A stretch of 64,000 nucleotides of DNA from Escherichia coli. GTDB lineage: Bacteria; Pseudomonadota; Gammaproteobacteria; Enterobacterales; Enterobacteriaceae. The DNA lies in the NCBI RefSeq assembly GCF_044324785.1, contig NZ_CP172127.1, one strand, 5' to 3'. Below, piece after piece: positions 697 to 42,969 of the stretch (positions within the stretch are counted from its first letter, which is position 1; the number at the start of each line of letters is the position of its first letter). The notes beneath the pieces were generated by a model. It ran no database searches. It was given only the letters and a program-made list of their open reading frames with translations, and was not told where the DNA came from. The position numbers and the translations under genes are program-made.

Positions 697-1764
697 ATGT
701 CAAAACTGGTTCTGGAACAGGTGACCAAAACCTTCGGCGAATTCTATGCCGCCAGAGAAATCTCGTTCTGCGCCGAAGAGGGGGAGTTCGTGACCCTGCT
801 TGGGCCGAGCGGCTGCGGTAAAACCACCCTGCTGAAAATGATCGGCGGTTTTCACCAGCCGGACAGCGGACGCATTCTTATTGGCGATAAAACGGTCAAC
901 GCCCTGCCGCCAGAAAAGCGCAATACCGCCATGTGTTTCCAGTCCTATGCGCTGTTTCCGCACCTCAACGTGGCACACAACATCTGCTTCGGCCTGAAGC
1001 AGAAAAAAGTCGCTATCAGTGAACAGCAGGACCGGCTGACGGAGGCGCTGAAGCAGGTGGGGCTGGAGAGCCAGCGCCTGAAAATGCCCGCCCAGCTCTC
1101 CGGCGGCCAGCAGCAGCGCGTGGCGCTGGCGCGGGCGATGATCACCCGCCCGGACGTGATCCTGTTCGACGAACCTCTCTCCAACCTTGATGCCAAGCTG
1201 CGCGAAAGCGTGCGTTTTGAAATCAAGGAACTCCAGCGGCAGTATCAGCTCACCTCGATCTACGTCACACACGACCAGGCGGAAGCGCTGGCGATGTCGG
1301 ATAAAATTGTGGTGCTGAACGCCGGTAATGTTGAGCAAATAGGCAAACCGGAAGAGATTTACTACCGTCCGGCCAACCGCTTTGTGGCCGACTTTATCGG
1401 CGCGGCCAATATCGACACCGCGCAGGTCACGCCCTCAGAGCAGCCGGGCTATTACCGGGTACGCTGTGCCCTCGGCGAGTTTTATGTGCATTCCGTACAG
1501 CCGCCACGCACAGAGCACTGCTATATCTGCTGGCGACCGGAAGATGCGCAGTATGTCAGCCAGCCTCAGGCAGGCAACAACCACTTCTCCCTGACGCTCG
1601 ACAAAATGGCCTTTATGGGCAACCTCACCGAAGCCTGGGGCCACAACGACAGCGGGTTATCGGTCCGCTTACAGCTAATTAAAAAGCCGCCCGTCGCCCC
1701 CGGCGAGAGTGCCTGCTTCCGTCTGGCGGAAAACGCCATCCATTTTCTGGAGCCGGTATCATGA
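697..1764 (+). CDS. ABC transporter ATP-binding protein (PotA/FbpC-like, with C-terminal TOBE-like domain)
   Basis: Walker [13 protein letters not shown] signature [14 protein letters not shown], Walker [12 protein letters not shown]; GGAAGAGAG RBS precedes the ATG at 697; stop overlaps the next gene (ATGA at 1761). Confidence 0.85.
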
Positions 1765-3478: not shown

Positions 3479-4558
3479 GTGATGAAAAAAACAGTGATGA
3501 TTCTGGCGGGCGGCCTGCTGTGCAGCTCGCTGGCAACGGCGGCGGATAGCCCCGACCTGATTGCCCAAGCGAAAAAAGAGGGCAGCGTGACCTTTAACGT
3601 CTGGTACTTACAGCCGCAGTGGCGCAGCTTTGTGAAGGATTTTGAGCAGCAGTACGGCGTTAAGGTGCGCATCCCGGAAGGGAATATCGACGGAAACGTG
3701 AACAAGTTGCTGGCAGAAGCGGGGAAAAAAAGGGGTAAAATAGATGTTATCGCCTTGTCTGTTGCGCAACTGCCAGTGGCAATGGGAGCGAAAGCGCTGG
3801 CGAAGGTGGACGATTTGCCGGGCTATGGCGACGCCATTCACCAGATTCAGAACGTTGACACCCAGGGTTATGCCGTGGCGTTCTGGGGCAACCAGACCGG
3901 ATTTGCTTACGACCCGCAGCAGATGGGTGACCGGGCGCTGCCACAAACGCTGGAGCAGTTGCAGAGCTTTATCGACGCCAACCCGAAAAAGTTCGGCTAT
4001 AACGACCCGAACAACGGCGGCGCGGGGGAAGCCTTTATCCAGCGCATCGTCACTACTCAGGGCGACACGTTTAACAGCGAAGCGGAGAGCGTTGACCCGG
4101 CAGTGGTGAAAAACTGGCAGAAAGGCTGGCAGTGGTTTGCTGCTAATAAGGACAAAATTACCCGCACGGCCTCCGGTGCTGATAGTCTGACACGCCTGAA
4201 TGACGGCGAGCTGATGCTGACACCATCCTGGGAAGACCATCTTGTCGGACTACAAAAAACCGGGGCTATCAATTCGCGGCTGAAATTTTACGTACCGGAG
4301 TTTGGCATGCCTGGCGGCGGTAACATCGCTGCCATTGCCGCCAACAGCCCACATCCGGCGGCATCACGCTTATTCCTCAACTGGCTGATTCAGCCTGAAA
4401 CGCAACATGCACTGAGTAAAGTCTTCGGCTCCACGCCGATGAACAAACAGCTCCGTCCGGATCTGAATGAGATCCCGGAGCCCACGGTGGAGTTTTATGG
4501 CAAAGCGTACAGTACACAGCTCAAAAAAGATTTCGTTCGTGAGGTCATGATGCAGTAA
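3479..4558 (+). CDS. Periplasmic substrate-binding protein of the ABC transporter (PotD/family 1 SBP-like)
   Basis: Signal peptide MMKKTVMILAGGLLCSSLATAADS; 359 aa; operon context. Confidence 0.8.
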   Translation: MMKKTVMILAGGLLCSSLATAADSPDLIAQAKKEGSVTFNVWYLQPQWRSFVKDFEQQYGVKVRIPEGNIDGNVNKLLAEAGKKRGKIDVIALSVAQLPVAMGAKALAKVDDLPGYGDAIHQIQNVDTQGYAVAFWGNQTGFAYDPQQMGDRALPQTLEQLQSFIDANPKKFGYNDPNNGGAGEAFIQRIVTTQGDTFNSEAESVDPAVVKNWQKGWQWFAANKDKITRTASGADSLTRLNDGELMLTPSWEDHLVGLQKTGAINSRLKFYVPEFGMPGGGNIAAIAANSPHPAASRLFLNWLIQPETQHALSKVFGSTPMNKQLRPDLNEIPEPTVEFYGKAYSTQLKKDFVREVMMQ

Positions 4559-19716: not shown

Positions 19717-19992
19717 GTGGCTTCTGTTTCTATCAGCTGTCCCTCCTGTTCAGCTACTGACGGGGTGGTGCGTAACGGCAAAAGCACCGCCGGACATCAG
19801 CGCTATCTCTGCTCTCACTGCCGTAAAACATGGCAACTGCAGTTCACTTACACCGCTTCTCAACCCGGTACGCACCAGAAAATCATTGATATGGCCATGA
19901 ATGGCGTTGGATGCCGGGCAACTGCCCGCATTATGGGCGTTGGCCTCAACACGATTTTACGTCACTTAAAAAACTCAGGCCGCAGTCGGTAA
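19717..19992 (+). CDS. insA: IS1 InsA
   Basis: [43 protein letters not shown]... matches IS1 InsA. Confidence 0.9.
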
Positions 19993-20414
19993 CCTCGCGC
20001 ATACAGCCGGGCAGTGACGTCATCGTCTGCGCGGAAATGGACGAACAGTGGGGCTATGTCGGGGCTAAATCGCGCCAGCGCTGGCTGTTTTACGCGTATG
20101 ACAGTCTCCGGAAGACGGTTGTTGCGCACGTATTCGGTGAACGCACTATGGCGACGCTGGGGCGTCTTATGAGCCTGCTGTCACCCTTTGACGTGGTGAT
20201 ATGGATGACGGATGGCTGGCCGCTGTATGAATCCCGCCTGAAGGGAAAGCTGCACGTAATCAGCAAGCGATATACGCAGCGAATTGAGCGGCATAACCTG
20301 AATCTGAGGCAGCACCTGGCACGGCTGGGACGGAAGTCGCTGTCGTTTTCAAAATCGGTGGAGCTGCATGACAAAGTCATCAGGCATTATCTGAACATAA
20401 AACACTATCAATAA
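19911..20414 (+). CDS. insB: IS1 InsB frame (expressed as InsAB' by -1 frameshifting)
   Basis: ORF carrying the IS1 InsB sequence ...[47 protein letters not shown]...; coordinates are the open frame, not a defined start. Confidence 0.8.
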
Positions 20415-20429
20415 GTTGGAGTCATTACC

Positions 20430-20578
20430 GTGTTCCCGACAGACGACTCGGTGAAAAAAGTGGTGTGGCTGGCAATCCAGTCTGCGTCCCAGAAATGGAC
20501 GATGCCGTTGAAGGACTGGCGAATGGCAATGAGCCGCTTTATTATCGAGTTCGGTGACCGCCTGGACGGTCACTTCTG
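20430..20578 (+). pseudogene. C-terminal fragment of an IS256/Mutator-family transposase, cut at the IS1 boundary
   Basis: VFPTDDSVKKVVWLAIQSASQKWTMPLKDWRMAMSRFIIEFGDRLDGHF followed by a stop; resembles IS256-family transposase C-termini as recalled; begins right at the IS1 end. Confidence 0.5.
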
Positions 20579-20848
20579 AGAAAAGGCATTTACACAGAAT
20601 CCTAAACAGGCTCATTCAGACAGCTTTTTATTTCACTATGGCTATCCCAGAACAATCAGTACAAATAATAAAAGACATATCACAGCAACACTCCACACTG
20701 ACAGCGCAAAAATAAATGCCGCCTTTGTTATCTTCATATACAAGCAACCTGTCCTGATAATCACCAGCTCATGTTTTATTCTTAACCATTCGTCACAAAT
20801 ACAACAAAAAATAACAGCAGCAGCACCGATATCACAATATAAGATACA

Positions 20849-21304
20849 TTATTCAACACCTGAATCCCCCGCCGCTTCTCTCCCCTTTATAAAACGCCCC
20901 TTCCGGAATCCAGACCGCTGCAGTGCACGACGAAGATGACCGTATACCGTCTTGTCATTCTGCCCCGTCTCTTCTGTAATCTCCGCAATACTTAAACCTC
21001 TGTAATACCGGTTCAGTAACGCTCTGCGCTCTTCCAGCGTCAACACACCTCCGGCCGCTCTCAGATTCAGCATCGACTTATTCAGAATACAGCAGGCCTC
21101 TCCGGTAAAAAGAATACGAACAATATCTGTATACTCATCATCACAGAATACAAAATAATATCTGAATGACCTGCCTGACTGCACCCTTCTTCTGTCTGAT
21201 ATGGCATCTTCTATATATCTGATTCGACTGCTTACGGTTCCAAATACCTCTCGCAGGGCTTTTTCAAAATAAATATCTCTCGTCGCCAGGATTATATCCA
21301 GCAT
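20849..21304 (-). CDS. Putative HTH transcriptional regulator (LuxR/sigma-70 region-4-like C-terminus)
   Basis: C-terminal LTLEERRALLNRYYRGLSIAEITEETGQNDKTVYGHLRRALQR resembles a GerE/region-4 HTH; lies immediately upstream of the adhesin gene on the same strand. Confidence 0.5.
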   Translation of the reverse strand: MLDIILATRDIYFEKALREVFGTVSSRIRYIEDAISDRRRVQSGRSFRYYFVFCDDEYTDIVRILFTGEACCILNKSMLNLRAAGGVLTLEERRALLNRYYRGLSIAEITEETGQNDKTVYGHLRRALQRSGFRKGRFIKGREAAGDSGVE

Positions 21305-21365
21305 CTCTGTACCTCATTATATCCCGGGGGACTCCCCCCGGGACAGATATCTAAATCCTGACCTG

Positions 21366-22631
21366 TCAGAACTCAAAATTCACACCAGCATTCCACGATG
21401 CGGATGACCCACCTGCAGCAACTGCAACTTTTCCTGCCACATTCTCTGTGAAACGGTAGCCCACGCCCACCGCAATGGCCTGCTCATCACGGTAACCACC
21501 AACGGCTGCTGTCGCGTTAAATTTTCCAACACTGTATGGCTGGAAAAGACCGGCCAGTGCCGCGCTCTGGGCTGCACTCTCCCTTAACTCCTTCCGGTTC
21601 TCTTTAATCTGCTCCTGCATATTATTCATTCTCTCTGTCGCCATCTTCTGCCAGGCTTCCGTCAAATCCAGACGATGACTGTTATTCCTTATCGCTGCTG
21701 TATTTGAGGCTATTGCTGCATCCGTCTGCGCCCTGTTCTTCACAAGCACATCGCTGAGATGTTCTGCCTGGCTTTTCGCTTCTTTACGGGCATCCCGTAC
21801 ACTTTTATCTGTATAAGCCCGGGAAACCTGAACTGTTTCATCCGCTTTTTCTTTTATTTCATCCTGAAGAGCAAGAGAAGATGCATCCGTATACGCCACC
21901 GCTGCCGATGTGCCTGCAATAATATCCCTGCTGAGTTCATCACGTACTGCTGTAACCTGACTGTCAGTATGAGCACGGGCATCTCTGTATACACCGCCTA
22001 TCTCACCGCGCAGGGCATCCCCCGACACCCGTACAGCATCTGCAATGGCGTTGTCCATCTGTCCTTTTGTGGCCGCATCACTATCCTTAACACCATCTGA
22101 AACATTTATAATCCGGCGGGTTTCCGGTGCTCCTTTGACACTCTCTCCATATCCCTCAGGCCCGGCACCAACAGATACCACGTTATTTTCTCCCGACACC
22201 TGTGAGCCATGGCCCAGAGCTACAGAACTGGTAGAATCCTGCACAGATGAAAACGCACCAATTGCCGAGCTCTGACGAGAAGAAATAAGTGACGCTTCTT
22301 TTCCTGCAACAGTCCCCCATTCAGAGTCAGCAATAAGTGCATCATGCCCCAGACTCACACTTCCCGGAGAGTTCACAACACCAGAATTATTCCCCAAAAG
22401 CACAGTCCTGTTTGAGTCTAATAAAAAAGAATCATCACCAATCAACCATACATTTCTTACTTTATCAATCGAACGGCCAGCTACTGATTCTCCAACAAGA
22501 AAGCTATTATCTTCGCCAGGTTCAATCGGTCCGATTAAAATATCCTGAGCCTGAGCCTGAGCCGAGAGCAGCAGGGCCACACTCACTGCCAGCGCGCTTT
22601 TCTTTAAAAAAGCATCACGTCTTTTAAGCAT
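21366..22631 (-). CDS. Trimeric autotransporter adhesin (YadA-like C-terminal anchor; Eib/Saa-like)
   Basis: Signal peptide [28 protein letters not shown]; repetitive head, long coiled-coil stalk; C-terminal anchor ...[35 protein letters not shown]; RBS AGGAGA before the ATG at 22631. Confidence 0.7.
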
Positions 22632-23118
22632 TCTGTTATTCTCCTGTATTATTACTTCACCAGCCAGAACGGTAGTGCGGAGCAAAAATACAGTGATAAG
22701 AATCCTCTTTTATTAATTTAATAATGCCAGGAATATTATTGTGTATAATATGCGCCCTCAATTTAAGCAGCAGAAAAGCAATGACGAGAAAATCATTAAA
22801 ATACATAAAGATAAAACATCATAACTATAATTATAATAAGCGCGCTTATTTTAGCATCTGAACATTTAAAGTACTGCTATCACAAAACAATAAAAATCCT
22901 GGGTAATATCTCTGATGATTGAATGAGAAATTCACGATGTCTGGTGAGAATTCTGTTCAAAACGAGGAATGCAGACATACATGTGGCAGGCATGGACTTC
23001 CACCGATTTAACTTTTTTCCTTCCTTGTATTTACACATCACACATTTTGCGCTACAAAAATTTCACGTGGCACGCACCACGTGATCCGTAGAAAAGCCTC
23101 TTGTTACGAATTTCGTAA

Positions 23119-23150
23119 ACCGCACGTCTGTCTGGTCGTGCGGATTTTTT
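23119..23150 (+). terminator. Orphan intrinsic-terminator-like hairpin with U-tract
   Basis: CCGCACG-tctgtctggt-CGTGCGG followed by ATTTTTTAT; no + strand CDS upstream. Confidence 0.4.
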
Positions 23151-23343
23151 ATCCGTCAACTTCACATGAAACCGCCAGATCACTGTTTCCGGATTCAGAC
23201 ATCAGGCATATTATCATCCACAATGTCGTGAACAAGATCACACTTTTGCAATTCCTTTATTGATCGAAAGCAGTTAATCACGGAAATTAATTACCGGAGT
23301 GAAAGCATTACTGCATCGTAAATATCTACCATTTTTGACTACA

Positions 23344-23373
23344 CCCTCTGACAGAATTTTCAGAGGGTTTTTT
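23344..23373 (+). terminator. Orphan intrinsic-terminator-like hairpin with U-tract
   Basis: CCCTCTGA-cagaattt-TCAGAGGG followed by TTTTTTAT. Confidence 0.45.
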
Positions 23374-23827
23374 ATCAGTTTCACCATCCAACCCTGTACG
23401 CCAGAATGGTTTCACTGTCACTCAGTTCTGCTATTGCCTTTTTCATCTCCCTTTACCTTACGTTCTGCCAGAGTCTGAGCCATTTGAACAGGAGGTTATC
23501 ATTGATATCGTGTTCCCGGGCAATACGGGCAACAGAGGCTCCTGGTTGCAAAACCAGTTTAACCATTTGAAGTTTAACTCATTTGAAAATGATCTGCGGG
23601 GTTCTGCGGATAATGTTTTTGCTCCATAACAGGCGCCCACCAGTTTGAAAAGGTGGGCACCTACGTTACCAATACTGGCTTAATGGATACATACGGCGGT
23701 CGGTTCTTACGGTAAAACGACACAACCAAACGCTTCTTATCCTGCAATGAACTGCTTTATTACCGAGTTTAGTGACCGCACAGACACTCACTTTTAAGAA
23801 AAACAGAATGGTAAACAAACTCCATGA

Positions 23828-35969: not shown

Positions 35970-36338
35970 GTGTCAGACACACTCTCCGGGATAACTCATC
36001 CCGACGACAATCACGACCGCCCCTGGTGGGGGCTTCCCTGCACAGTGAGGCCCTGTTTTGGCGCCCGTCTGGTGCAGGAGGGTAACCGGTTGCATTACCT
36101 TGCCGACCGCGCCGGCATCAGAGGCCGGTTCAGCGATGCGGATGCATACCATCTGGACCAGGCCTTTCCGCTGCTGATGAAACAACTGGAACTCATGCTC
36201 ACCAGCGGTGAACTGAATCCCCGCCATCAGCATACCGTCACGCTGTATGCAAAAGGGCTGACCTGCGAAGCCGACACCCTCGGCAGTTGTGGTTACGTTT
36301 ATCTGGCTGTTTATCCGACGCCCGAAACGAAAAAGTAA
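35970..36338 (+). CDS. cbeA: CbeA/YeeU/YfjZ-family type IV antitoxin
   Basis: MSDTLSGITHPDDNHDRPWWGLPCTVRPCFGARLVQEGNRLHYLADRAGIRGRF...YVYLAVYPTPE matches the family. Confidence 0.8.
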   Translation: MSDTLSGITHPDDNHDRPWWGLPCTVRPCFGARLVQEGNRLHYLADRAGIRGRFSDADAYHLDQAFPLLMKQLELMLTSGELNPRHQHTVTLYAKGLTCEADTLGSCGYVYLAVYPTPETKK

Positions 36339-36428
36339 ACCACCGGAATAACCTTCTGCTCCGGCCAGGTGTTTTCACCACGCCACTCTCCCCATAATTT
36401 AATCTCTCATATCAGGAAAATCTTCAGT

Positions 36429-36839
36429 ATGAAATTATTACCCGACACACATGTACGGGAGGCATCGTGCTGCCCGTCTCCCGTCACCATCTGGCAGACA
36501 CTGCTCATCCGTCTGCTGGACCAGCACTATGGCCTCACACTGAATGACACACCGTTCGCTGATGAACGTGTGATTGAGCAGCATATTGAGGCCGGCATTT
36601 CACTGTGCGATGCGGTGAACTTTCTCGTTGAAAAATACGCACTGGTACGTACCGACCAGCCGGGATTCAGCGCAGGAGCCCCGTCGCAGTTAATCAACAG
36701 CATCGATATTCTCCGGGCCCGCCGGGCAACAGGCCTGATGACACGTAATAACTACAGAATGGTAAATAACATTACCCTGGGTAGCATCCGGGGGCGAAAC
36801 GATGAAACTTTCCCTGACGCTGGAAGCCGACAGCGTTAA
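36429..36839 (+). CDS. cbtA: CbtA/YeeV/YpjF-family toxin (cytoskeleton-binding toxin)
   Basis: ...[67 protein letters not shown]...[16 protein letters not shown] matches the CbtA family; start set at MKLLPDTH. Confidence 0.75.
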
Positions 36840-37323: not shown

Positions 37324-38190
37324 ATGTCTAAAATCACAGTCTCCCGTCCGGAAGTGGTCAACGGGCATACGGACGTTATCTGTTCCACCTCAATCTGCCA
37401 CATTCTGGCTGTACGAAAGAATACACTGCTGCAAATCGACACACTTATCCGGCAACTGGCTGAAATCTCGGTGCTGACGGAAAGCATCGGAGGTAAAACT
37501 GCCCCGGACTGGGCCATGAAACAGGATTTTCGCTGCGGATGCTGGCTCATGGAGAAACCTGAAACGGCAATGAAAGCCATTACCCGGAATCTTGACCGCG
37601 AAATCTGGCGTGACCTGATGCAACGTTCAGGGATGCTTTCCTTAATGGATGCACAGGCCCGTGATACATGGTACCGATCACTGGAATACGATAATTTTCC
37701 GGAAATCAGTGAAGCGAACATTCTGAGCACATTTGAACAACTGCACCAGAATAAGGATGAGGTGTTTGAGCGAGGGGTGATCAACGTCTTCAGGGGACTG
37801 AGCTGGAATTACAAAACCAATTGCCCCTGCAAATTTGGCAGTAAAATTATCGTCAACAACCTGGTGAGGTGGGACCGGTGGGGGTTTCATCTGAACAACG
37901 GCCCACAGGCCGATCGACTTGCCGATCTGGAAAGAATGCTGCACCTGTTCAGCGGCAAACCGATCCCCGACAACCGGGAAAACATCACCATTCATCTGGA
38001 TGATCACATCCAGTCTGTTCAGGGTAAAGAGGACTATGAAGATGAGATGTTCAGCATCAGATACTTTAAGAAGGGCTCCGCGCACATCACGTTCAGGAAA
38101 CCAGAGCTGGTTGACAGGCTTAATGATATTATTGCCAGACACTACCCGGAAGCCCTGGCAAGCACAGTGAACAAAAGCCGCAAGGCATAA
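37324..38190 (+). CDS. Hypothetical protein (288 aa), conserved-looking island protein of unknown function
   Basis: Long ORF with the GGAATATCGATTATG start context; no catalytic motif recognised. Confidence 0.5.
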   Translation: MSKITVSRPEVVNGHTDVICSTSICHILAVRKNTLLQIDTLIRQLAEISVLTESIGGKTAPDWAMKQDFRCGCWLMEKPETAMKAITRNLDREIWRDLMQRSGMLSLMDAQARDTWYRSLEYDNFPEISEANILSTFEQLHQNKDEVFERGVINVFRGLSWNYKTNCPCKFGSKIIVNNLVRWDRWGFHLNNGPQADRLADLERMLHLFSGKPIPDNRENITIHLDDHIQSVQGKEDYEDEMFSIRYFKKGSAHITFRKPELVDRLNDIIARHYPEALASTVNKSRKA

Positions 38191-38261
38191 AAGAGGTATT
38201 TTACAATTCGCGAATATTAACTATTATTAATTGATAGTAATCAATCGGCGAGAAAATAACC

Positions 38262-38525
38262 ATGCCTACCAGTGTATCCCTCAGTCCTTACTTTGAAACG
38301 TTTATCCGCGAACAAATAGAAAGTGGTCGGTACAACAATACAAGTGAAGTCATTCGTGCCGGACTTCGTGCGCTGGAAGAACGGGAACAGCAGATAAAGC
38401 TTGAATCACTCCAGAGCGCCGTGACCGCAGGCATCAACAGCGGTGAAAGTAAAAGTGCTGAAGAGGTATTCGGGCGACTGACGCACAAATACAAAAAGAT
38501 GGCAGAAGGTGAACAGCCAATATGA
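38262..38525 (+). CDS. parD: ParD-family type II antitoxin (ribbon-helix-helix)
   Basis: 87 aa; ...SEVIRAGLRALEEREQQIKLESLQSAVTAGINSGES... typical of ParD; stop overlaps the toxin start (ATGA at 38522). Confidence 0.75.
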   Translation: MPTSVSLSPYFETFIREQIESGRYNNTSEVIRAGLRALEEREQQIKLESLQSAVTAGINSGESKSAEEVFGRLTHKYKKMAEGEQPI

Positions 38526-38848
38526 AACTGACTGTTTCACCATTAGCAGAACACGATCTTGAAGCTATAGGTGACTGGATCGCTCAGGATAATCCTGTCC
38601 GTGCAATCAGTTTTACCGAAGAGCTTTACCAACAATGTCTGTTGATAGCCGAATCGCCAGTACTCTACAGAGAAAGACCCGAGTTAGGGGCTGGGATCAG
38701 AGGTTGTTCGTATGGTCGTTACCTTCTGCTGTTCAGGGTACTGGATACTGAAGTTCGTATCGAACGTATCGTTCATGGTTCCCGGGATATCAACAGGGTA
38801 CTTGCAGAGCCAGACGACAAACCATCAGATCATTTCTGGCAGCCATAA
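38522..38848 (+). CDS. parE: ParE/RelE-family type II toxin
   Basis: 108 aa, ...LLLFRVLDTEVRIERIVHGSRD... ParE-like; translationally coupled to parD. Confidence 0.75.
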   Translation: MKLTVSPLAEHDLEAIGDWIAQDNPVRAISFTEELYQQCLLIAESPVLYRERPELGAGIRGCSYGRYLLLFRVLDTEVRIERIVHGSRDINRVLAEPDDKPSDHFWQP

Positions 38849-39095
38849 ACAAAATCTGTGCGTTAACGCTCCCTAACACAGGTAGCCAGGTATTTTATAA
38901 ATCTCTGTATTTTGTTGTCACTTCGATTCCGCGATTCAGCATATCGAACCAGATAAAATGATTACAACAAACCACAAGAAAGAGGGATTATAGCGTCAAA
39001 AGAATTCGAATTGCACATGGGGGCCTCATTGGTGGCCTCAAAAATAACAAACACAAAACAATCAATATAAAACAACTTGTTATACAACCAGTTTC

Positions 39096-39114
39096 ATTCC
39101 GAGTCCGGGCACCA
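39096..39114 (+). repeat. 19-nt direct repeat of the tRNA-Phe 3' end (attR-like island boundary)
   Basis: ATTCCGAGTCCGGGCACCA equals the 3' terminal 19 nt of E. coli tRNA-Phe (pheU/pheV) as recalled; upstream sequence does not fold as a tRNA; followed by the tRNA-type terminator. Confidence 0.7.
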
Positions 39115-39126
39115 AATTCATATAAA

Positions 39127-39151
39127 CGGACCTCCACGGAGGTCCGTTTTT
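39127..39151 (+). terminator. Intrinsic terminator (native pheU-downstream type)
   Basis: CGGACCTCC-ac-GGAGGTCCG followed by TTTTT. Confidence 0.6.
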
Positions 39152-39730
39152 CGTTTCAGGACGCCACAATTTAAGCGTTCTGCCTAAAAATCATTTCTAC
39201 CGAACTCAACCAGATTCTCCCCACATCACCAGCAATTTGCGGGCATATCCCAATTCGGGGAAATGTGTTCCTGAGCTATAGCACTGACTGACGTGAAATG
39301 TCGTGCGGCCCCGTGATGCTGTTGAACGTCAAATGACGTCATCAGGAGCGTAACGCATCCATAAAGCACAACATCGGGCAGAACGCCGACTGATAAGATT
39401 TTCTGAATGAGAACAAAGAGAAATGTATCAGTCCGCTTGCTCATGCAAAGACTAACAATCCATTAAAATAGTAAGCGCTCCGGGCAATTTTCCATGGATT
39501 ATTTTCTGAACATTTTTCTTTGGCAAAGATGATGAATTTTGATGGTAAGGAATATTACTTCTGGTTCTCAGTAAAATCCTTTCGTAATACTATGTGATCA
39601 AGAAGTTTATGGCTGGTAAAAATAACGTCTTGCATTCACCAATAATATGTAAATAAACCCATCTATAGATGGTAAAAATAGGTTGTGGCAATTATCATTG
39701 CATCATTCCCTTTTCGAATGAGTTTCTATT

Positions 39731-41269
39731 ATGCAACAACCTGTAGTTCGCGTTGGCGAATGGCTTGTTACTCCGTCCATAAACCAAATTAGCCGCAATG
39801 GGCGTCAACTTACCCTTGAGCCGAGATTAATCGATCTTCTGGTTTTCTTTGCTCAACACAGTGGCGAAGTACTTAGCAGGGATGAACTTATCGATAATGT
39901 CTGGAAGAGAAGTATTGTCACCAATCACGTTGTGACGCAGAGTATCTCAGAACTACGTAAGTCATTAAAAGATAATGATGAAGATAGTCCTGTCTATATC
40001 GCTACTGTACCAAAGCGCGGCTATAAATTAATGGTGCCGGTTATCTGGTACAGCGAAGAAGAGGGAGAGGAAATAATGCTATCTTCGCCTCCCCCTATAC
40101 CAGAGGCGGTTCCTGACACAGCTTCTCCCTCCCACAGTCTTAACATTCAAAACACCGCAACACCACCTGAACAATCCCCTGTTAAAAGCAAACGATTCAC
40201 TACCTTTTGGGTATGGTTTTTTTTCCTGTTGTCGTTAGGTATCTGTGTAGCACTGGTAGCGTTTTCAAGTCTTGATACACGTCTTCCTATGAGCAAATCG
40301 CGTATTTTGCTCAATCCACGCGATATTGACATTAATATGGTTAATAAGAGTTGTAACAGCTGGAGTTCTCCGTATCAGCTCTCTTACGCGATAGGCGTGG
40401 GTGATTTGGTGGCGACATCACTTAACACCTTCTCCACCTTTATGGTGCATGACAAAATCAACTACAACATTGATGAACCGAGCAGTTCCGGTAAAACATT
40501 ATCTATTGCGTTTGTTAATCAGCGCCAATACCGTGCTCAACAATGCTTTATGTCGGTAAAATTGGTAGACAATGCAGATGGTTCAACCATGCTGGATAAA
40601 CGTTATGTCATCACTAACGGTAATCAGCTGGCGATTCAAAATGATTTACTCCAGAGTTTATCAAAAGCGTTAAACCAACCATGGCCACAACGAATGCAGG
40701 AGATGCTCCAGCAAATTTTGCCGCATCGTGGTGCGTTATTAACTAATTTTTATCAGGCACATGATTATTTACTGCATGGTGATGATAAATCATTGGATCG
40801 TGCCAGTGAATTATTAGGTGAGATTGTTCAATCATCCCCAGAATTTACCTACGCGAGAGCAGAAAAAGCATTAGTTGATATCGTGCGCCATTCTCAACAT
40901 CCTTTAGCCGAAAAACAATTAGCAGCACTGAACACAGAAATAGATAACATTGTTACACTGCCGGAATTGAACAACCTGTCCATTATATATCAAATAAAAG
41001 CGGTCAGTGCCCTGGTAAAAGGTAAAACAGATGAGTCTTATCAGGCGATAAATACTGGCATTGATCTTGAAATGTCCTGGCTAAATTATGTGTTGCTTGG
41101 CAAGGTTTATGAAATGAAGGGGATGAACCGGGAAGCAGCTGATGCATATCTCACCGCCTTTAATTTACGCCCAGGGGCAAACACCCTTTACTGGATTGAA
41201 AATGGTATATTCCAGACTTCTGTTCCTTATGTTGTACCTTATCTCGACAAATTTCTCGCTTCAGAATAA
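39731..41269 (+). CDS. cadC: CadC, membrane-integrated ToxR-like activator of cadBA
   Basis: 512 aa, MQQPVVRVGEWLVTPSINQISRNGRQLTLEPRLIDLLVFF...; single TM segment (FTTFWVWFFFLLSLGICVALVAF); matches K-12 CadC. Confidence 0.95.
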   Translation: MQQPVVRVGEWLVTPSINQISRNGRQLTLEPRLIDLLVFFAQHSGEVLSRDELIDNVWKRSIVTNHVVTQSISELRKSLKDNDEDSPVYIATVPKRGYKLMVPVIWYSEEEGEEIMLSSPPPIPEAVPDTASPSHSLNIQNTATPPEQSPVKSKRFTTFWVWFFFLLSLGICVALVAFSSLDTRLPMSKSRILLNPRDIDINMVNKSCNSWSSPYQLSYAIGVGDLVATSLNTFSTFMVHDKINYNIDEPSSSGKTLSIAFVNQRQYRAQQCFMSVKLVDNADGSTMLDKRYVITNGNQLAIQNDLLQSLSKALNQPWPQRMQEMLQQILPHRGALLTNFYQAHDYLLHGDDKSLDRASELLGEIVQSSPEFTYARAEKALVDIVRHSQHPLAEKQLAALNTEIDNIVTLPELNNLSIIYQIKAVSALVKGKTDESYQAINTGIDLEMSWLNYVLLGKVYEMKGMNREAADAYLTAFNLRPGANTLYWIENGIFQTSVPYVVPYLDKFLASE

Positions 41270-41634
41270 GTAACTCCCGGGTTGATTCATACTCGGGAAT
41301 ATTTGTTGTTGAGCTTTTGTATGTTTCTGTTGGTATAATATGTTGCGGCAATTTATTTGCCGCATAATTTTCATTACATAAATTTAACCAAAGAATGTTC
41401 CGCAATCCATTGTAAACATTGAATGTTTATCTTTTCATGATATCAACTTGCGATCCTGATGTGTTAATAAAAAACCTCAAGTTCTCACTTACAGAAACTT
41501 TTGTGTTATTTCACCTAATCTTTAGGATTAATCCTTTTTTCGTGAGTATTCTTAGCGCCAGTTTGGTCTGGTCAGGAAATAGTTATACATCATGACCCGG
41601 ACTCCAAATTCAAAAATGAAATTAGGAGAAGAGC
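41270..41634 (+). promoter_or_regulatory. cadC-cadB intergenic region containing the Pcad promoter and CadC binding region
   Basis: AT-rich 365-bp region upstream of cadB; Pcad and CadC sites are described for this interval in K-12 (established knowledge); exact sites not mapped here. Confidence 0.55.
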
Positions 41635-42969
41635 ATGAGTTCTGCCAAGAAGATCGGGCTATTTGCCTGTACCGGTGTTGTTGCCGGTAATATGATGGGG
41701 AGCGGTATTGCATTATTACCTGCGAACCTAGCAAGTATCGGTGGTATTGCTATCTGGGGTTGGATTATCTCTATTATTGGTGCAATGTCGCTGGCATATG
41801 TATATGCCCGACTGGCAACAAAAAACCCGCAACAAGGTGGCCCAATTGCTTATGCCGGAGAAATTTCCCCTGCATTTGGTTTTCAGACAGGTGTTCTTTA
41901 TTACCATGCTAACTGGATTGGTAACCTGGCGATTGGTATTACCGCTGTATCTTATCTTTCCACCTTCTTCCCAGTATTAAATGATCCTGTTCCGGCGGGT
42001 ATCGCCTGTATTGCTATCGTCTGGGTATTTACCTTTGTAAATATGCTCGGCGGTACCTGGGTAAGCCGTTTAACCACTATTGGTCTGGTGCTGGTTCTTA
42101 TTCCTGTGGTTATGACTGCTATTGTTGGCTGGCATTGGTTTGATGCTGCGACTTATGCCGCTAACTGGAATACTGCGGATACCACCGATGGTCATGCGAT
42201 CATTAAAAGTATTCTGCTCTGCCTGTGGGCCTTCGTGGGTGTTGAATCCGCAGCTGTAAGTACTGGTATGGTTAAAAACCCGAAACGTACCGTTCCGCTG
42301 GCAACCATGCTGGGTACTGGTTTAGCAGGTATTGTTTATATCGCTGCGACTCAGGTGCTTTCCGGTATGTATCCGTCTTCTGTAATGGCAGCTTCCGGTG
42401 CTCCGTTTGCAATCAGTGCTTCAACTATCCTCGGTAACTGGGCTGCGCCGCTGGTTTCTGCATTCACCGCCTTTGCGTGCCTGACTTCTCTGGGCTCCTG
42501 GATGATGTTGGTAGGCCAGGCAGGTGTACGTGCCGCTAACGACGGTAACTTCCCGAAAGTTTATGGTGAAGTCGACAGCAACGGTATTCCGAAAAAAGGT
42601 CTGCTGCTGGCTGCAGTGAAAATGACTGCCCTGATGATCCTCATCACTCTGATGAACTCTGCCGGTGGTAAAGCATCTGACCTGTTCGGTGAACTGACCG
42701 GTATCGCAGTACTGCTGACTATGCTGCCGTACTTCTACTCTTGCGTTGACCTGATTCGTTTTGAAGGCGTTAACATCCGCAACTTTGTCAGCCTGATCTG
42801 CTCTGTACTGGGTTGCGTGTTCTGCTTCATCGCGCTGATGGGCGCAAGCTCCTTCGAGCTGGCAGGTACCTTCATCGTCAGCCTGATTATCCTGATGTTC
42901 TACGCTCGCAAAATGCACGAGCGCCAGAGCCACTCAATGGATAACCACACAGCGTCTAACGCACATTAA
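41635..42969 (+). CDS. cadB: CadB lysine:cadaverine antiporter
   Basis: 444 aa APC-family transporter, [43 protein letters not shown]... Confidence 0.95.
   Translation: MSSAKKIGLFACTGVVAGNMMGSGIALLPANLASIGGIAIWGWIISIIGAMSLAYVYARLATKNPQQGGPIAYAGEISPAFGFQTGVLYYHANWIGNLAIGITAVSYLSTFFPVLNDPVPAGIACIAIVWVFTFVNMLGGTWVSRLTTIGLVLVLIPVVMTAIVGWHWFDAATYAANWNTADTTDGHAIIKSILLCLWAFVGVESAAVSTGMVKNPKRTVPLATMLGTGLAGIVYIAATQVLSGMYPSSVMAASGAPFAISASTILGNWAAPLVSAFTAFACLTSLGSWMMLVGQAGVRAANDGNFPKVYGEVDSNGIPKKGLLLAAVKMTALMILITLMNSAGGKASDLFGELTGIAVLLTMLPYFYSCVDLIRFEGVNIRNFVSLICSVLGCVFCFIALMGASSFELAGTFIVSLIILMFYARKMHERQSHSMDNHTASNAH

Follow-up and report, generated by a model that had tools for sequence, protein, structure and literature searches.

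The window, that is, the whole 64-kb stretch of Escherichia coli DNA that was analysed, carries on its plus strand, at 39096-39114, the 19 nucleotides ATTCCGAGTCCGGGCACCA. To the left of this 19-mer lies the end of a genomic island with a toxin-antitoxin pair; to the right lie a terminator-like hairpin, a degenerate integrase gene, and the genes cadC and cadB. The features of this region are the following.

37324-38190, plus strand: DUF4942-family gene, last of a conserved CP4-type island-end module (named as by PGAP in MS1685)
38262-38525, plus strand: ParD-family antitoxin, island cargo (NCBIfam TIGR02606, 96.9 bits, cut-off 46.2; PGAP in MS1685 and 1517k)
38522-38848, plus strand: RelE/ParE-family toxin, last island gene (PGAP WP_000779483.1 at the homologous position in MS1685, 1517k, and EC17CM2)
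38849-39095, plus strand: non-coding right arm, on the island side of attR (100% identical in 1517k)
39096-39114, plus strand: very probable attR core of 19 nt, equal to the tRNA-Phe 3' end up to CCA; the far (left) end of the island is expected to carry the other direct copy, in an intact pheU
39115-39277, plus strand: pheU trailer with the terminator inside; by homology to IntB spacers, probably also the left arm of an island of a second type ("IntB", intP4-like)
39124-39149, plus strand: intrinsic-terminator-like hairpin, by folding; trails pheU in K-12 and E1
39278-39471, plus strand: internally deleted, frameshifted remnant of a P4-type integrase gene, counterpart of the K-12 pseudogene yjdQ (tblastn and start-region alignment)
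39472-39588, plus strand: DNA homologous to that downstream of intact IntB-type integrase genes (blastn against TUM1886)
39731-41269, plus strand: cadC, the first core gene to the right (NCBIfam NF007540, 753 bits, cut-off 400)
41635-42969, plus strand: cadB (NCBIfam NF007754, 920 bits, cut-off 585)

Neither the DUF4942-family gene nor the RelE/ParE-family toxin gene has an NCBIfam match. The 19-mer is identical at 19 of 19 positions to the last 19 nt of both pheU and pheV of K-12, and it is matched only once in the 64 kb when up to three mismatches are allowed, with a chance expectation of 0.01. No alignment to the body of tRNA-Phe is obtained for the DNA on its left, which is also unrelated to that of empty-site strains; ARAGORN calls no tRNA gene in the whole window, and an Rfam scan of 38500-39800 returned a single chance match (bxd_5, E = 0.31). 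The statements of the preliminary description that the 19 nt equal the tRNA-Phe 3' end and that the preceding sequence is unable to complete a tRNA are thus borne out. Its further statement that the window contains neither a tRNA gene nor an integrase holds for the tRNA gene, but an integrase remnant is present on the right side of the 19-mer, at 39278-39471. Over the 56 nt at 39096-39151, the window agrees at every position (100% identity) with the pheU 3' end and trailer of K-12-type strains. This 56-mer is found at one to four sites per genome, either under a tRNA-Phe gene or at island junctions, so that the scattering over unrelated positions that would speak against an attachment site is not seen.

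The hairpin behind the 19-mer, AAACGGACCTCC-AC-GGAGGTCCGTTT followed by TTCGTTT, comprises 11 base pairs (6 of them G-C) and a loop of 4 nt, with TTTTTCGTTT next to it as a T5 tail. Its fold has a free energy of -21.7 kcal/mol (z = -3.4), and none of 200 shuffled sequences folded as well. Such a G+C-rich hairpin running into T residues has the form of an intrinsic terminator, and the hairpin would be predicted to terminate transcription. The expectation that it is the normal trailer of the tRNA gene proved right for pheU, behind which it lies in K-12 and E1, but not for pheV of K-12, which is trailed by a different hairpin; in K-12 the terminator is specific to pheU.

In E1 and K-12 MG1655, the empty site reads dsbD, dicD (yjdC), pheU, approximately 617 bp, and cadC. 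When the proposed alignment to the pheU-cadC region of K-12 was made, the order dicD-pheU-terminator-cadC was obtained, and the identity of the window to E1 and K-12 was found to set in at the first base of the 19-mer and to extend past the terminator to cadC. The empty site therefore resumes exactly at the repeat. The GC content is about 0.41-0.47 on both sides of position 39114, without a step in the GC or skew profile, a comparison that is uninformative because cadC itself is low in GC. Over 39001-42000, cadC and its upstream region have approximately 41% G+C, which is as low as at the island end.

Occupied sites were found in related genomes. EC17CM2 is colinear with window positions 2020-41000 and has the same right arm, 19-mer, terminator, integrase remnant, and cadC; at 81.6 kb to the left of the junction, dicD and an intact tRNA-Phe are followed directly by a tyrosine integrase of the P4 type that is likewise intact (WP_001218742.1). 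MS1685 shares the junction at 99.4% identity over 38000-41000 and has, 83.8 kb to the left, an intact pheU with a frameshifted P4-type integrase directly behind it. In both genomes the intact pheU precedes island DNA and not the terminator, which has been displaced to the far end along with the 19-nt repeat. TUM1886 is colinear with approximately 1-41000. From this colinearity and from the occupied sites it follows that the 39 kb to the left of the 19-mer are island DNA, as had been proposed. An intact copy of the 19-nt core is present at the far end in EC17CM2, MS1685, and SMS-3-5, together with an intact tRNA and a tyrosine integrase gene; the window ends before the left end of its island, so that the origin of attR by integrase-mediated insertion into pheU is supported by way of the related genomes EC17CM2 and MS1685. 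Of the 5,426 complete E. coli genomes, 160 contain the full junction region (38000-41000) and 1,113 the window-type arm, while the pheU-trailer/cadC-side region is matched in 5,421. In EC17CM2, the closest cadC-linked relative, an ISEcp1/blaCTX-M-14 unit is located inside the pheU island (locus 19816-23541); this unit is absent from the window.

The right arm adjoins the 19-mer in all junctions examined, which are those at pheU of MS1685 and EC17CM2, that of 1517k, and that at pheV of SMS-3-5. It contains two 11-nt direct repeats, TGGGGGCCTCA at 39018-39028 and TGGTGGCCTCA at 39030-39040, which are putative arm-type binding sites of the integrase. In the cases seen, repeats of the GGGGGCC type accompany an integrase of the SMS-3-5 type and those of the GGGTA type accompany the other integrase type. 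This hints that a repeat type might be assignable to one integrase type, an assignment that is kept weak because a similar 19-bp attR has been placed with intP4.1 as well (PMC11537424).

The junction also occurs at pheV, in SMS-3-5. This strain shares its integrase accession with EC17CM2, and its left end, although identical to that of MS1685, adjoins yqgA-pheV. Its right end consists of ParD, ParE, the window-type arm, and the 19-mer, behind which come the native pheV hairpin and the kps genes. Since the same junction of arm and core recurs at an independent locus, the arm and the 19-mer belong to the element, whereas the DNA that follows is the trailer of the respective target tRNA gene.

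Junctions of this kind have been described. In a study of GI-pheV from 2024, two main classes of attR were distinguished, a 23-bp repeat with a 1-nt deletion and a 19-bp repeat, TTTCATTCCGATTCCGGGCACCA, and it was noted for SMS-3-5 that the 19-bp repeat is perfect and that the integrase diverges most (PMC11537424). The attR of the window reads TTTCATTCCGAGTCCGGGCACCA, with the same TTTC as left context as in the published 19-bp class, while the right end of TUM1886 corresponds to the 23-bp-repeat form with the 1-nt deletion. The window shares with the 19-bp class of GI-pheV and GI-pheU islands (PMC11537424) the integration at the tRNA-Phe 3' end, with an attR reading TTTCATTCCGA.TCCGGGCACCA. 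It also shares a CP4-like island-end module (DUF932, antirestriction, RadC, YeeU/CbtA, DUF4942) and, as seen in its relatives, a P4-type integrase (intP4) beside the intact tRNA at the other end; the right arm, the ParDE pair, and the 19-mer are the same as in GI-pheV of SMS-3-5. Unlike the GI-pheV class, the junction of the window is located at pheU, the cognate integrase of the relatives is of the divergent SMS-3-5 type, and the cargo is a mosaic that is fully matched by no complete genome searched. The common intP4.1 class has a T substitution where the 19 nt of the window match perfectly. The integrase behind the junction of the window is probably of the SMS-3-5/EC17CM2 type, which has 42% protein identity to the intact type of 420 or 421 amino acids found at Phe-tRNA junctions; the latter is probably the common intP4. 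The junction is a textbook attR of a known Phe-tRNA island class and is already known in kind.

The cargo of the window is colinear with that of TUM9803 over 1-37000. It includes a glycerophosphodiester phosphodiesterase, an ABC transporter, sodC, and a YadA-like adhesin; a cluster of allH, fdrA, ylbE, a xanthine permease, and a carbamate kinase; several IS fragments; and the CP4-type module (GTPase, DUF932, antirestriction, RadC, YeeU/CbtA). The closest relative switches at approximately 38093, inside the DUF4942 gene, from the GF60/TUM9803 type on the left (17000-38093, 97-99% identity) to MS1685 and 1517k, which are the best matches to the right of approximately 38000 (99.4-100%). Because of this switch the island is regarded as a recombinant, with a likely recombination breakpoint between related islands near 38093. 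No genome in the collection of 5,426 matches the whole window. Nearly the same cargo ends at ygfF in TUM9803 (locus 36331-36718) and at glnP in GF60 (locus 4249-4557). The end at ygfF is without a tRNA-Phe core, its arm containing GGGGGCTA-type repeats, and these cargo ends point to another attachment site or to rearrangement.

The DNA at 39115-39588, between the 19-mer and cadC, itself resembles parts of an element. Positions 39115-39277 are 90-91% identical to the spacer between tRNA and integrase in intact IntB-type islands (1517k and TUM1886), and the same left arm is found behind pheV in UMNK88. Strain 1517k shares the island end, the 19-mer, and the terminator, and approximately 170 bp further on it has an intact integrase of 421 amino acids starting with MALTDAKIR. 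In the window, about 12 N-terminal codons of such a gene are fused to its last 62 or so codons, with approximately 1 kb deleted and a TAG stop at 39469-39471. The start codon is changed from ATG to ATA at 39278, giving IALTDVKCRAAP. With the 1517k integrase as query, tblastn aligned residues 359-420 with 39312-39395 and 39397-39468 (E = 9e-8) and detected no further integrase homology in the window. A full-length P4-type integrase reading frame with its catalytic domain is thus lacking; frameshifts and stops mark the gene as a pseudogene, as in K-12. In most E. coli genomes, the PGAP annotation shows a short piece of an integrase gene in the interval from the terminator to cadC; in the K-12 annotation this is the pseudogene yjdQ. 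The homology runs approximately 117 nt past the stop of the remnant, to 39588 (39304-39588 against TUM1886, 71% identity, E = 8e-44 by blastn), and ends 143 bp before cadC. The window at 39115-39730 represents the same locus as yjdQ of K-12, being about 98% identical to K-12-type strains, except that in K-12 it lies directly behind the intact pheU, while in the window the large island intervenes. In the library of papers searched, none discusses yjdQ.

Taken together, the homologies of the spacer, the start region, the integrase C-terminus, and the downstream DNA argue that 39115-39588 is the gutted left end of an island of the second type. The terminator, the arm, yjdQ, and the roughly 120 bp that reach to position -143 of cadC would then stem from the left end of an early-acquired intP4-like island and not from the ancestral chromosome, a reading that is favoured with some reserve. 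The 19-mer would accordingly mark the junction of a large island with a vestigial one that is present in nearly all E. coli.

The distribution of the terminator fits into this scenario. The same terminator and arm are found between a tRNA-Phe core and an intact integrase at pheU in S1, at pheV in UMNK88, and at the junctions of tandem islands in 1517k and TUM1886. As the trailer of K-12 pheV is different, the pheU-type terminator must have come to pheV with an element. For a chimeric query composed of the pheV flank and the pheU trailer, the count at 80% coverage was non-discriminating, since the regions upstream of pheU and pheV are homologous from query position 60, and only individual matches with yqgA under them were used. 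By these comparisons the pheU terminator seems to travel with one integrase type (IntB), and it is probably derived from an element. In a scan of species-representative genomes, the exact junction of core and terminator was found in 18 DNA stretches from 17 genomes of Enterobacterales, among them Escherichia albertii and members of Citrobacter, Enterobacter, Klebsiella, Hafnia, Serratia, Rahnella, Yersinia, and Edwardsiella. At 16 of the 18 loci the junction belongs to an intact tRNA-Phe gene, as called by ARAGORN. A degenerate search placed the start motif of the integrase about 200 nt behind the tRNA at 11 loci, and one further locus contains an integrase remnant. Two loci at tRNA-Phe, in Edwardsiella ictaluri and Enterobacter quasihormaechei, have no integrase within 2 kb of the trailer; the terminator could therefore be native in some lineage and have been captured by an element later. 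In Rahnella sp. AA, one of the 18, an intact tRNA-Phe has its own, different terminator and is followed about 130 nt on by a 17-nt partial Phe core. Behind this core lie the E. coli pheU-type terminator and an arm with GGGTA repeats, disrupted by an insertion (locus 1400-1700, minus strand).

Stacking of elements at pheU is evident in TUM1886. There, dicD and the intact pheU are followed by a 79-kb SPI-7-type ICE and a 52-nt tRNA-Phe repeat, and then by the terminator with an intact integrase, the window-type island, the core repeat with terminator and remnant, and finally cadC. This order indicates that each insertion takes place at the intact tRNA and moves the earlier elements to the right, the remnant beside cadC being the oldest layer. 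Elements stacked in this way, each ending in a partial tRNA-Phe repeat, are a likeness to the window; the ICE differs in its 52-nt repeat, which starts from the anticodon stem, and in its integrase, whereas in the window the repeat is limited to the 19-nt core and ICE genes are absent. The 78-nt "tRNA-Ser" annotated by PGAP in TUM1886 (locus 20613-20690) is really the 52-nt 3' fragment of tRNA-Phe that forms the right-end repeat of the ICE, and no tRNA is called at this repeat by ARAGORN.

The most convincing explanation, and one held with considerable confidence, is that 39096-39114 is the attR core of a large island that was inserted site-specifically at the 3' end of pheU, next to an older, gutted island. 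The satellite phage P4 and the CP4-type cryptic prophages are the model for this process: their P4-family tyrosine integrase targets the 3' end of a tRNA gene, of which the element carries a copy, so that the tRNA gene is rebuilt upon insertion; P4 itself uses leuX. The island of the window resembles them in its target and in the element-borne tRNA 3' end; it differs from P4 in not using leuX and in that no phage genes were seen near its end. By a mechanism of this kind, the final 19 nt of tRNA-Phe are also present on the island in its circular form. The island, of approximately 65-84 kb in the relatives, would have entered the 3' end of pheU by means of its P4-type tyrosine integrase. A crossover inside the 19-nt identity would rebuild an intact pheU at the integrase end (attL) and leave the old 19 nt, with everything that formerly lay behind pheU, at the far end (attR). 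The recombination chemistry at attR is hereby modelled on the known systems. The displaced DNA would comprise the pheU terminator, the 160-bp arm, and the dead integrase gene yjdQ. Together these parts would represent the left end of an older island, of the second integrase type, from which a later deletion removed almost everything. Two elements stacked at one tRNA gene would thus meet at the 19-mer, with cadC 143 bp past the last trace of the older one.

It is also conceivable, albeit unlikely, that the site is a genuine attR whose left end is no longer at pheU, be it because of recombination or inversion between pheV and pheU islands or because a further element, for instance an ICE of the SPI-7 type, sits in tandem with it. 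In that case, the 39 kb to the left would be more than a single island inserted into pheU. Such events do occur among the relatives. In TUM1886 the 79-kb ICE separates pheU from the window-type island, and in 2022E04-002 (NZ_CM132301.1, 1155658-1162025) yqgA-pheV is joined directly to the pheU-type terminator, an integrase remnant, and cadC, which implies a large chromosomal inversion between the two Phe-tRNA loci. The breakpoint near 38093 and the ends of the same cargo at ygfF and glnP point in the same direction. Against this stand EC17CM2, with its long colinearity, and MS1685, with the same junction and a mosaic cargo, both of which have a simple far end composed of pheU and integrase; moreover, no second Phe core with three or fewer mismatches was found in the 39 kb to the left of the 19-mer. 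In this particular genome, pheU is one possible place for the left end of the island; the others are behind a further tandem element or, after rearrangement, somewhere else.

It is highly improbable that a deletion or an IS event destroyed pheU and left the 19-mer behind as a tRNA-Phe pseudogene truncated at random. The many IS fragments in the island and the absence of a tRNA gene from the window would be in keeping with such an event, but no IS end abuts the 19-mer, the relatives have an intact pheU at the other end, and the junction fits a published attR class (PMC11537424). The break occurs at exactly the same nucleotide, next to the same 247-bp arm, in independent genomes and at pheV of SMS-3-5; this sharing of arm and 19-mer with a second tRNA locus speaks for site-specific integration, and random truncation was rejected on these grounds.

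With attR of a pheU-inserted island as the preferred reading, the boundary between island and core is set to the nucleotide, with island DNA extending to 39095 and the core repeat occupying 39096-39114, which is useful for annotating the accessory genome of what are apparently avian or extraintestinal-type E. coli. The current understanding of tRNA-linked islands is left unchanged. Judged from the perfect 19-nt repeat, the island could still excise if its integrase were intact, as it is in EC17CM2. If the trailer of pheU indeed derives from a vestigial island, the pheU terminator and part of the region upstream of cadC would have been donated by an element, later islands would stack to the left of the vestigial one, and each incoming island of the IntB integrase type would bring a fresh copy of the terminator. 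For annotators, the spacer between pheU and cadC would then not be taken as virgin chromosome.
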